Below, one piece after another: positions 1 through 1,749 of a DNA stretch of 25,466 bases. This stretch comes from a virus (Duplodnaviria > Caudoviricetes): the IMG/VR virus record IMGVR_UViG_3300031857_019453, positions 1 through 25,466 of that record; one strand, 5' to 3'. Every line of letters starts with the position of its first letter. Position 1 is the stretch's first letter. The translations under genes and the position numbers were made by a program. Below the pieces are notes generated by a model. The model ran no database searches. It saw nothing but the letters and a program-made list of their open reading frames with translations, and had not been told where the DNA came from.

Positions 1-75
1 GTGCCCACTCTTGGAATCGAACCAAGCACCCCCGCCTTATCAAGACGATGCTCTAACCGAATGAGCTAAGTGGGC
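1..75 (-). tRNA. tRNA-Ile(GAT), 3' end cut by the window edge
   Basis: Reverse complement folds as a cloverleaf: acceptor GCCCACT/AGTGGGC, anticodon arm TCGTC-TTGATAA-GGCGG, T-loop TTCGATT. Confidence 0.95.
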
Positions 76-135
76 AAGTATGATATAATCTACCAAGCAT
101 GTTGTGCTTGTATCACAGTTAGTTATATCATTAAA

Positions 136-211
136 TGGTACACCCAAGGGAATTCGAATCCCTGTTACCGCCGTGAAAGGGCGGGGTCCTAGGCCACTAG
201 ACGATGGGTGC
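136..211 (-). tRNA. tRNA-Glu(TTC)
   Basis: Acceptor GCACCCA/TGGGTGT, anticodon arm CCGCC-CTTTCAC-GGCGG, T-loop TTCGAAT, encoded CCA. Confidence 0.96.
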
Positions 212-220
212 ATAAAACTT

Positions 221-237
221 AAATTGTTAAAGAATCA
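221..237 (-). promoter_or_regulatory. boxA-like (rrn-type) antitermination element
   Basis: Minus strand reads TGATTCTTTAACAATTT, close to the E. coli rrn leader boxA TGCTCTTTAACAATTT. It sits between a promoter and tRNA-Glu. Confidence 0.6.
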
Positions 238-249
238 AAATATTCAGAC

Positions 250-278
250 ATCTTATCTCGTTTTGGATTTAATGTCAA
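250..278 (-). promoter_or_regulatory. sigma70-type promoter upstream of tRNA-Glu
   Basis: TTGACA (278-273), 17-nt spacer, TAAGAT (255-250). Confidence 0.75.
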
Positions 279-287
279 GTTGTTGTT

Positions 288-363
288 TGGTGGAGGTAAA
301 CGGGATCGAACCGATGACCTTTAGCTTGCAAAGCTACTGCTCTCCCAGCTGAGCTATACCCCC
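288..363 (-). tRNA. tRNA-Ala(TGC)
   Basis: Acceptor GGGGGTA/TACCTCC with the G3:U70 alanine identity pair, anticodon loop TTTGCAA, encoded CCA. Confidence 0.96.
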
Positions 364-372
364 ATTTTACTC

Positions 373-449
373 TGGCCTGCCCGAGACGATTCGAACGTCC
401 GACCCACAGCTTAGAAGGCTGTTGCTCTATCCAACTGAGCTACGGGCAG
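373..449 (-). tRNA. tRNA-Arg(TCT)
   Basis: Acceptor CTGCCCG/CGGGCAG, anticodon arm ACAGC-CTTCTAA-GCTGT, encoded CCA. Confidence 0.96.
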
Positions 450-462
450 ATATTAAAAGCAG

Positions 463-491
463 AGTATATCTCAACTCTGAATTAATGTCAA
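463..491 (-). promoter_or_regulatory. sigma70-type promoter upstream of tRNA-Arg
   Basis: TTGACA (491-486), 17-nt spacer, TATACT (468-463). Confidence 0.8.
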
Positions 492-492
492 C

Positions 493-1053
493 CTAAGACT
501 GTAGGATCCTGCTATGTTTGGGCACGCCACTAATCAAATATTCCATTTGATCTGCAAGAATGTTTCTATTTTGCAAAATCATACTTTCAAAGTGATTAGG
601 TTCGTAAGGCACATAAAGTAATTCCATTCTTGCTTCTTTAAGTGTCTTATTGTCTTTTTTGTTATTACATGCTGTACATGCAGTTACTACATTCATCCAT
701 GTATTAACACCACCTTTACTCTTAGGCACGATATGGTCACGACTAAGGTGGTGATAGTTTGGAAAATGCCCACCGCAGTATGCGCAAACATGTCGGTCAC
801 GTCCAAACAATGTTTTGTTTGTCAGTGCGACTTTGCCATGTTTAGCTGGATCAAATCCATGTCCTTTAATTGCAATGATACTAGGAGTTTCGATGTAACT
901 CAAACGACCGTCATTTTGAATTCCACCACGAAACTTTGCAACGACTTCACCTAGCGACCATGCAACCATATCTTTCGCATGATATGTAATTGCATTTTCG
1001 TGCGAAATCCATTGTCTAGGGATTCCACCGATGTCCAACGCTAGTACTGACAT
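493..1053 (-). CDS. HNH endonuclease (McrA-like, zinc-binding)
   Basis: RDRHVCAYCG...SRDHIVPKSKGG...N.VTACTACNNKK gives two CxxC pairs around the DH...N...N HNH core. Shine-Dalgarno AAGGAGAG precedes the ATG. Confidence 0.9.
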   Translation of the reverse strand: MSVLALDIGGIPRQWISHENAITYHAKDMVAWSLGEVVAKFRGGIQNDGRLSYIETPSIIAIKGHGFDPAKHGKVALTNKTLFGRDRHVCAYCGGHFPNYHHLSRDHIVPKSKGGVNTWMNVVTACTACNNKKDNKTLKEARMELLYVPYEPNHFESMILQNRNILADQMEYLISGVPKHSRILQS

Positions 1054-1156: not shown

Positions 1157-1320
1157 ATGGTAAAGCAAACTGATCCTATGTCATCGGTCATAGGGTTACA
1201 CATGTTCATCAATTTGCTTTATCATTCCCGTTTTACTCTGCTGTTACCGCCAGCACTTTCATCAGGGGCTCCGCCCGTTCATAGCATGTTTAAAGTGCGC
1301 TATTGAGACCTCGTTTCTCT
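1157..1320 (-). ncRNA. putative structured non-coding RNA, family not recognised
   Basis: Multiple helices and a possible pseudoknot: ATAGC/GCTAT, GCACTTT/AAAGTGC, GGGC/GCCC, TGCTG/CAGCA, and a ~17-bp interrupted stem with inner CCTATG/CATAGG. Lies just downstream of a promoter at 1341-1370. Confidence 0.5.
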
Positions 1321-1335
1321 ACACACTTAAACGTA

Positions 1336-1488
1336 TCAAGATTCTAACACGTTATCGTCTTTATTGTCAACCGTTTTTATATAACCATATTGCTGTCGCA
1401 ATCTTTCAAATTTTTCTCTTATCAATTTGTCAAGTTGTTCATCTGATAATATATGGTCGTTGACAAAGTTATCATTTTGATAATTCAT
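1336..1488 (-). CDS. small hypothetical protein, 50 aa (not in ORF track): MNYQNDNFVNDHILSDEQLDKLIREKFERLRQQYGYIKTVDNKDDNVLES
   Basis: ATG at 1488 with GGAG Shine-Dalgarno (1500-1497), TGA at 1338-1336. First ORF after the attenuator terminator. Confidence 0.65.
   Translation of the reverse strand: MNYQNDNFVNDHILSDEQLDKLIREKFERLRQQYGYIKTVDNKDDNVLES
1341..1370 (-). promoter_or_regulatory. sigma70-type promoter with extended -10
   Basis: TTGACA (1370-1365), 18-nt spacer, TGn-TAGAAT (1346-1341). Confidence 0.7.
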
Positions 1489-1504: not shown

Positions 1505-1541
1505 AACAAAAAACCCTGGGACTTTTTTAGTACCAGGGTTT
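1505..1541 (-). terminator. Rho-independent terminator (attenuator terminator)
   Basis: AAACCCTGG-T-ACT / AGT-C-CCAGGGTTT stem running into a TTTTTTGTT tract. Confidence 0.85.
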
Positions 1542-1562
1542 AGATAATCATACTACACGCTA

Positions 1563-1691
1563 CTATTTACCTAAACCCCCCAAGCCCTCAATAATATTAC
1601 GGTCACTTGTTAAGGCATAAAACCCTACAGGTAGCCACCCCATTAGTGATGGCTGCTTTTTGGTTGTATGTATACAAGTAAAGTTAGTCAT
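1563..1691 (-). CDS. putative attenuator leader peptide, 42 aa (not in ORF track): MTNFTCIHTTKKQPSLMGWLPVGFYALTSDRNIIEGLGGLGK
   Basis: ATG 1691 to TAG 1565-1563, followed by a second TAG. It lies between a consensus promoter and a terminator, and its last codons form the 5' arm of a competing antiterminator helix. Confidence 0.65.
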   Translation of the reverse strand: MTNFTCIHTTKKQPSLMGWLPVGFYALTSDRNIIEGLGGLGK

Positions 1692-1720
1692 AGTAATTTT
1701 ATTTAGTCCTTATGCAAAAT

Positions 1721-1749
1721 ATTATACTTTTTCTAGTAATAAATGTCAA
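1721..1749 (-). promoter_or_regulatory. perfect-consensus sigma70 promoter
   Basis: TTGACA (1749-1744), 17-nt spacer, TATAAT (1726-1721). Confidence 0.9.

Follow-up and report, generated by a model that had tools for sequence, protein, structure and literature searches.

In the leaders of the trp, his, leu, thr, ilv and phe attenuators, control codons for one to three amino acids stand in runs, and the regulated operons are biosynthetic. T-box riboswitches bind one uncharged tRNA directly and have no leader ORF. A leader of broader composition is the upstream ORF (uORF) of whiB7 in M. smegmatis, which, according to the accessible passages of its description, contains 19 of the 20 amino acids with Cys absent (PMC10274678). 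In the same passages, stalling on this uORF leads to read-through, one codon is enough for a response to the corresponding amino acid, and loss of the single Trp weakens the Trp response (PMC10274678). The attenuator is described there as chromosomal and Ala-rich and as controlling a transcription factor, and the M. tuberculosis version is devoid of several residues (PMC10274678). Two further uORFs, P. aeruginosa PA5471.1, which acts on armZ (PMC12057347), and E. coli toiL (PMC12121999), are induced by ribosome-targeting drugs and sense drug-induced stalling; toiL acts via RBS occlusion and Rho. The passages available for these two describe neither full amino-acid coverage nor a tRNA gene as target (PMC12057347, PMC12121999). 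T-box riboswitches are mentioned in the excerpts of PMC2965389, which do not refer to phage, and PMC11464382 reports in its title that a viral tRNA neutralises a tRNA-cleaving defence. No leader-peptide attenuator for tRNA genes or for a phage tRNA region was found in the searched literature, at the level of listings and abstracts and mostly outside subscription journals.

The locus described here was found in a piece of an uncultured, T4-like jumbo phage genome from freshwater, which is referred to as the window (the whole stretch of DNA analysed, 25,466 nt). Its features are listed in Table 1.

Table 1. Position of the leader, its switch elements and the downstream genes in the window.
Feature	Position	Strand	Remarks
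Leader ORF	1563..1691	(-)	42 codons; all 20 amino acids present by codon 35
Antiterminator 5' arm	1567..1579	(-)	within last four leader codons
Antiterminator 3' arm	1535..1547	(-)	overlaps terminator 5' arm
Intrinsic terminator	1506..1541	(-)	core stem-loop 1538-1514, U tract 1513-1506
Sigma-70 consensus promoter	1721..1749	(-)	12/12, 17-nt spacer
Conserved motif AGGACTAAATA	1700..1710	(-)	includes TAAATA 1705-1700, 8 nt before ATG
Internal sigma-70 promoter	1341..1370	(-)	11/12; bypasses attenuator
Internal sigma-70 promoter	463..491	(-)	11/12; directly before tRNA-Arg
50-codon ORF	1336..1488	(-)	good SD; directly after terminator; no family match
Structured non-coding RNA	1210..1332	(-)	no Rfam family; ends approximate
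HNH endonuclease gene	493..1053	(-)	
First four tRNA genes, Arg-TCT, Ala-TGC, Glu-TTC, Ile-GAT	1..449	(-)	contig end

Recomputation confirmed what the original prediction had reported of the ORF, i.e. its position, the appearance of 19 amino acids by codon 31 (Arg) and of the 20th at codon 35 (Glu), and the variation of synonymous codons; the upstream sigma-70 promoter likewise reached the full score. Ten amino acids are present as single copies, and Met also occurs internally (codon 17), so that coverage is complete without the initiator. From codon 2 to codon 37, 30 different codons are used, which represent 23 of 24 isoacceptor classes. The ORF has no match in Pfam or PHROG, and 40 members of its family gave no meaningful NCBIfam match. 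The predicted pairing of 1578-1567 with 1547-1536 was recovered with 12 bp and one G-U, and since both antiterminator and terminator use 1541-1536, the two helices are mutually exclusive as claimed. The antiterminator 5' arm follows Glu35, the last new amino acid, after 7 nt. The terminator starts 27 nt past the first base of the stop codon and its stretch (1545-1500) folds with -16.0 kcal/mol (RNAfold); a simple terminator scanner with a loop limit of 8 misses it. The observation in the window was confirmed as real and not due to chance.

In its layout the locus resembles the trp, his, leu, thr, ilv and phe attenuators, where the 3' end of the ORF also forms the antiterminator arm and the terminator follows about 30 nt after the stop. 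Unlike those of the trp/his type, however, the phage leader contains no control-codon run but all 20 amino acids, 10 of them in single copy. As in T-box riboswitches, the status of tRNA would set the choice between antiterminator and terminator, but no Rfam match to a T-box (Stem I, specifier loop, T-box bulge) was obtained in the window or in 20 related loci, and the leader matched no Rfam family. With PA5471.1-armZ (PMC12057347) and toiL (PMC12121999), as far as their available passages go, it shares a uORF that would report general translation stress. The closest system is whiB7, which, in the accessible passages, combines a uORF of broad amino-acid content, an antiterminator and an intrinsic terminator (PMC10274678); near-complete amino-acid content upstream of the antiterminator is found in the phage leaders as well. 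This case had been overlooked in the original prediction, which regarded known leaders as enriched in one or a few amino acids throughout (PMC10274678, same passages). The phage leaders differ from whiB7 in that they appear to be selected for completeness within 32-59 codons and head tRNA genes, i.e. the molecules that would be sensed. Whereas whiB7 exerts positive feedback on its own promoter, the phage leader heads a small ORF, an ncRNA, an HNH gene and tRNAs. Likened by its layout, it would work like the whiB7 attenuator but is not a whiB7 leader. The principle is known from whiB7; new are the phage setting and the complete, compact and arm-locked coverage ahead of a replacement tRNA set.

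Full coverage of one lone ORF is unusual but not decisive. Among windows taken from 28 of the 31 ORFs of the contig, all 20 amino acids were found in 12 of 6295 with 34 residues and in 63 of 6099 with 41 residues. With random codons, 20/20 is reached in 0.1-0.2% at 35 codons, a chance that the original prediction had left to be computed, and in 0.6-1.3% at 42 codons. In the complete relative G003, one ORF out of 222 with 40-50 codons is complete, and this is the leader. Chance is excluded because the whole family keeps the coverage.

More than 200 related mini-genes keep the layout of the window leader. Divergent homologues have AGGACTAAATA directly ahead of the start codon in common, and a scan with this motif, which is blind to the peptide, yielded 119 stretches, spread over 40 of the 64 parts into which the viral collection is divided. 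In 279 loci, 148 motif matches led to 136 ORFs of 35-75 codons, 86 of them distinct. All 20 amino acids, start Met excluded, are present in 76 of these 86 and the other 10 contain 19, so the leader ORFs of related phages keep their coverage despite divergence, a point that the original prediction had proposed to check; the leader sequences are related, and counts within the family are therefore not independent. Among representatives below 50% identity, 12 of 14 are complete. A profile search, whose set is chosen by similarity and overlaps the motif-picked one, gave 105 proteins, 102 of them complete, and two of the three misses are N-truncated gene calls. For the set-retention test, 175 distinct peptides were used and seven were dropped (truncated, extended or read-through). 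Here 164 of the 175 are complete, and completeness was 81-94% compared to 7-14% after permuting residues within alignment columns. A comparison of 119 nearest-neighbour pairs shows changes at 54 of 1521 sites with single-copy residues (3.6%) and at 1285 of 10426 sites with repeated residues (12.3%). In 51 of the 54 cases the changed single-copy residue is found elsewhere in the partner peptide, and the sole internal Met occupies 14 alignment columns, Val 10, His 7 and Trp and Cys 5 each, although alignment shifts somewhat inflate these relocation figures. Thus the rare residues (single Cys, Trp, His, Tyr and internal Met) relocate and yet the set stays complete, at a mean column identity of 34%. 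The pattern of substitution indicates that the full amino-acid set is retained by selection, which would act on the residue set of the peptide rather than on its sequence. Each genome contains one leader, except for G005, where two leaders (G005:C1:126988-127122 and 416418-416552) and two similar tRNA arrays lie in a 525-kb record; this record may represent two phages joined in assembly.

That the leader is translated, as assumed in the original prediction, is supported by a coding signature in its substitutions. In 48 close pairs, 270 changes fall on third positions compared to 144 and 145 on the others, and 184 of 332 single changes are synonymous and 148 non-synonymous, where 23% synonymous changes would be expected without mutational bias. 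Both other frames are closed by a stop in all of 83 leaders. The codons are also more varied than expected when the pooled leader codons are redealt; a null model from phage coding genes was too lenient. Thirty representatives contain 983 distinct codons (899 +/- 8.5 redealt) and 698 isoacceptor classes (666 +/- 4 redealt), and neither value was reached in any of 1000 shuffles. This excess points to tRNA species, beyond amino acids, as what is sampled.

The switch is conserved together with the ORF. Of 85 leaders with sufficient sequence, 83 have a terminator that starts 23-35 nt past the stop, and at least 5 U in 8 nt follow at 75 of 83 terminators. In L035, L045, L046, L258 and L261 the U tract is degenerate and the terminator would be leaky. 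In partial folds, the ORF end pairs with at least 4 bases of the terminator 5' arm in all of 83 leaders, but this alone is weak evidence because shuffled ORF ends capture as many in 54% of trials. The antiterminator energy lies beyond z = -2 in 55 of 83 leaders and is weak in some members, such as L014, L165 and L022. Stronger evidence comes from covariation, which was analyzed in 29 short-type leaders out of 45 representatives, the long type being left out. Here pairing reaches 76% in the antiterminator (19 two-sided cells) and 96% in the terminator (16 two-sided cells), both above 500 of 500 shuffles and above all slid controls, while two of five measures, which count pairs or types, are not above shuffles. 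Both predicted helices hence covary in relatives.

The residue set is positioned relative to the arm. Residue permutation would put the end of the last new amino acid upstream of the arm in 27.4 of 83 leaders, but it lies there in 79, and among leaders below 60% identity the set is complete before the arm in 19 of 23 (7.1 expected). Completion before the arm also holds where the arm sits 30-39 nt ahead of the stop, so it is the arm and not the stop that matters. The gap between set and arm is mostly 5-14 nt, which we take to fit the stretch covered by a ribosome ahead of its A site. In a masked-fold model (equilibrium folding, with the ribosome as a 26-nt mask), termination of the window leader is 0.14 without a ribosome and rises to about 0.99 from codon 36-37 on. 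Over the sensing codons, mean termination in this model falls below 0.5 in only 6 of 23 representatives at 37 C and in 5 of them at 20 C. Since equilibrium favours the terminator in most members, the model needs kinetic trapping, i.e. an antiterminator that forms first.

Only 13 of 83 homologous leaders are preceded by the perfect-type sigma-70 promoter, which is local to a subgroup. TAAATA lies 6-8 nt before the ATG in all 83, a range fixed by the search motif. In G003, TAAATA peaks 4-5 nt before the ATG in 24 of 282 long ORFs. We take the motif to resemble the T4 late consensus (TATAAATA-like -10 motif), and TAAATA at 1705-1700 is likely a phage late promoter that would give a near-leaderless mRNA. 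No Sigma70_r2 match to a gp55-like late sigma factor was obtained in four genomes, and none appeared among 72 of the 121 mid-size ORFs of G003 at E 1e-12. The original prediction had raised as a caveat that the Shine-Dalgarno sequence is far from the ATG. The sequence is as it was read, but it belongs to the conserved motif, which more likely holds the late promoter, and with a near-leaderless late transcript the worry would fall away. A second caveat, that internal promoters could bypass the switch, proved justified. Besides the two in Table 1, a further sigma-70 promoter lies at 278 in the window, and 44 of 60 loci have sigma-70 promoters in the interval from the terminator to the first tRNA, often 20-40 nt past the terminator; 14 of the 60 have neither promoter type there. 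Within each of 10 arrays examined there are 3-9 sigma-70 promoters, and none of the 10 contains a strong terminator.

Relatives of the locus were located via the neighbouring HNH and AhpD-like genes and include complete genomes of 349-525 kb; a T4 Gp23-type capsid protein was found in 4 of 5 records. The downstream RNA motif is present in 51 of 60 loci, contains invariant AACG.G and GGGCGG segments and shows two-sided changes at 10 of 12 predicted pairs. The tRNA genes that are cut by the contig end in the window continue in relatives. A record with identical leader peptide and HNH protein (G006) carries 14 tRNAs before its end, the closest long relative (G001) has 27 tRNAs covering 20 amino acids, and 14-33 tRNAs follow the leader in each of 10 arrays examined. 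Four arrays in complete records cover 18-20 amino acids. A tRNA gene within 1.5 kb upstream of the leader was found in none of 61 loci, and all 23 leaders without downstream tRNA have less than 1200 nt of sequence there. These comparisons support the placement of the leader at the head of near-complete tRNA arrays. The idea that gaps in the leader match gaps in the array was rejected, as 6 of 7 arrays keep a tRNA for the amino acid missing from their leader. In G010, His is absent from leader and array alike, and the array of G014 is truncated.

The same layout was also found in other leaders. A search by terminator alone (4 of 64 parts of the collection) gave 142 matches at 123 loci. With at least 600 nt visible, a short ORF with at least 19 residue types precedes 3 of 11 matches with tRNAs and none of 79 without, and five tRNA-linked matches have leaders with 15-18 residue types. 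A second family was identified with an internal motif that fixes five residues near the arm and thereby biases the counts of completeness and arm position; 15 matches were skipped. Here 80 of 85 leaders are complete, the set is complete before the arm in 74 of 84 (17.9 expected) and tRNAs lie downstream in 54 of 54. Furthermore, 38 array heads were chosen by neighbouring genes alone. Of these, 23 are matches of the first family and one more is L022, six carry other leaders, 32-40 codons long and with 19-20 types (L079 when read from an inner start), one has a leader with 15 types and in seven none was seen. In L074, L077, L079 and L080, the terminator lies 57-87 nt ahead of the first tRNA.

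Leaders before tRNA arrays of other phages were noticed in L301, L303, L337, L354 (about 2000), L305 and L392. Such leaders have 31-32 codons and 15-18 residue types, and there are a 24-codon Gln/Asn-rich leader in L305 and a Tyr/Ser-rich leader before tRNA-Tyr in L392. The promoter shapes of some of these phages are presumably of the Bacteroidota type. In L341 (1800-2040), a leader-like frame with antiterminator and terminator and 9 tRNAs downstream has no ATG start and possibly begins at GTG or ATA. In L395 (100-340), a leader of 43 codons, in which 19 residue types occur, has the same switch and is followed by an ATG, with 300 nt visible downstream.

We regard it as very likely that the element is an attenuator of some sort. 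More specifically, the leader is probably a ribosome-coupled transcription attenuator that senses slow decoding of any codon class and boosts transcription of the tRNA array. Transcription would start at the TAAATA late-type promoter and, in the subgroup of the window, also at the sigma-70 promoter. A ribosome keeping pace would reach codon 36-37 and beyond and mask the arm, whereupon the terminator forms. A ribosome held at any of codons 2-35, where a tRNA is missing, cleaved or uncharged, would leave the arm free; the antiterminator would then form first and the polymerase would read through. Polymerases that read through would transcribe the entire array and add to the basal tRNA from internal sigma-70 promoters; the switch would be a booster, probably late in infection, and not the sole gate. 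The comparative tests support the original prediction in part, namely in the translated leader, the selected coverage, the covarying alternative helices and the placement at array heads. Its further claim, that the entire tRNA supply of the phage follows demand, is not supported in this form, in view of the sigma-70 promoters downstream of the terminator and inside the arrays; with these, the switch more likely adds to a basal supply.

Other explanations have to be weighed against a sensor of every codon class. An attenuator might read overall ribosome speed or initiation instead of each tRNA, with temperature, antibiotics, ribosome damage or late-infection uncoupling as inputs, and full coverage would then merely avoid a bias towards single amino acids. 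Any lag or failed initiation would free the arm, in line with the low termination of the unmasked window leader (0.14), the 5' UTR looks nearly leaderless and leader gaps do not follow array gaps. Moreover, PA5471.1 (PMC12057347) and toiL (PMC12121999) answer ribosome-targeting drugs, as stated in their available passages. However, avoidance of bias needs no full set, and yet the leaders retain the single Cys, Trp, His, Tyr and internal Met at shifting positions and the codons are spread wider than expected, so that we consider this explanation unlikely. Control mainly of the next unit (50-codon ORF and structured RNA), or trimming of late read-through, with the tRNAs expressed almost entirely from internal promoters, agrees with the promoters at 1370, 491 and 278 and with an internal sigma-70 site in 44/60 loci. 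It is nevertheless improbable given the 14/60 loci with neither promoter type between terminator and first tRNA, the arrays without a strong internal terminator and the four loci with a terminator 57-87 nt before the first tRNA (L074, L077, L079, L080); leader completeness also parallels arrays that cover 18-20 amino acids.

The peptide itself could also be active, as an arrest peptide or small protein, with a terminator that merely ends its mRNA. An S-x-R motif is indeed found in 79 of 83 leaders, mostly 6-10 codons ahead of the arm, and Ser30 and Arg32 are near-invariant in alignment A1. But the motif is fixed at the codon level (Ser AGY and Arg CGY in 77 of 79 each) and in 75 of 79 the sensing zone has no other CGN codon. 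The C-terminus tolerates frameshifts (L005, L007), mean column identity is low (34%) and unrelated peptides occupy the same layout, which leaves an active peptide very improbable. Hardly any weight can be given to a chance ORF ahead of an ordinary terminator. About 1 in 100 windows of 41 residues holds all 20, and G-rich ORF ends readily pair with a terminator arm, but family-wide completeness, the coding signature, covariation and the distribution of short ORFs with at least 19 residue types (0/79 tRNA-less, 3/11 tRNA-linked terminator matches) speak against it. This explanation is refuted by the completeness of motif-picked leaders, the arm geometry and the set-retention test.

For the decoding-dependent attenuator favoured here, the broader meaning is more tentative. 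We incline slightly to the view that jumbo phages evolved, more than once, a compact audit of decoding in which any tRNA loss induces a replacement tRNA set as counter-defence. A leader of 32-59 codons would sample all amino acids and almost all isoacceptor classes upstream of the antiterminator, and such an audit would cover tRNA cleavage by host anticodon nucleases. If true, the tRNA genes would be under feedback from the very function they serve. It is debated why phages have tRNA genes, and codon bias, replacement of degraded host tRNA and escape from anticodon nucleases are discussed. A sensor that responds whichever tRNA fails and is wired to a near-complete set argues for replacement on demand over codon matching, and the role of phage tRNAs becomes testable with a 250-base reporter in a laboratory strain. 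The leaders themselves would be a natural compact reporter of decoding stress. The phage leaders may also be linked to the leaders of bacterial RNA-repair operons.

Among cultured phages, no leader-region match was found in 50,697 phage records, and matches elsewhere were at chance level. Ralstonia phage RsoM2USA and Salicola phage SCTP-2 have the HNH gene in common with the window. No 20/20 leader with terminator was seen in the stretches scanned, which were 30 kb of SCTP-2 and, in RsoM2USA, 60 kb that take in the start of the tRNA cluster lying furthest upstream. Before the first tRNA cluster of RsoM2USA (L282, ~12120-12040), a TATAAATA motif is followed by a Ser/Leu/Glu-rich ORF of ~25 codons, for which no clear terminator was seen. 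HNH relatives in the Ralstonia phage and in Burkholderiales plasmids weakly suggest a betaproteobacterial host. In bacterial genomes, one of 44 motif matches is a leader (L435); its 13.5-kb MAG contig carries 11 tRNAs and is probably part of a phage that was binned in error. Leader-related sequence is weakly present in three RNA runs; a 360-nt contig of run X3 spans 1250-1614 including the terminator with ~87% identity, but it is unstranded and may be DNA.

Several further features were observed. Downstream of the ahpD-like and ahpC genes, the window contains a second, degenerate AhpC/TSA-like gene (2252-1752; Pfam E 1e-7) with TAAATA 5 nt ahead of its ATG. Between 3813 and 23419 there is a long gene run with radical-SAM-type Cys motifs and oxygenase-like genes, as judged from translations. 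G003 encodes a phage tmRNA with the tag ANDSQFALAA (G003:C1:38319-38707), distant from the tRNA array. A tRNA call with CUA anticodon lies away from the array in L137/L141 (166-239), and a group I intron is located within the tRNA region of L211 (4319-4512).
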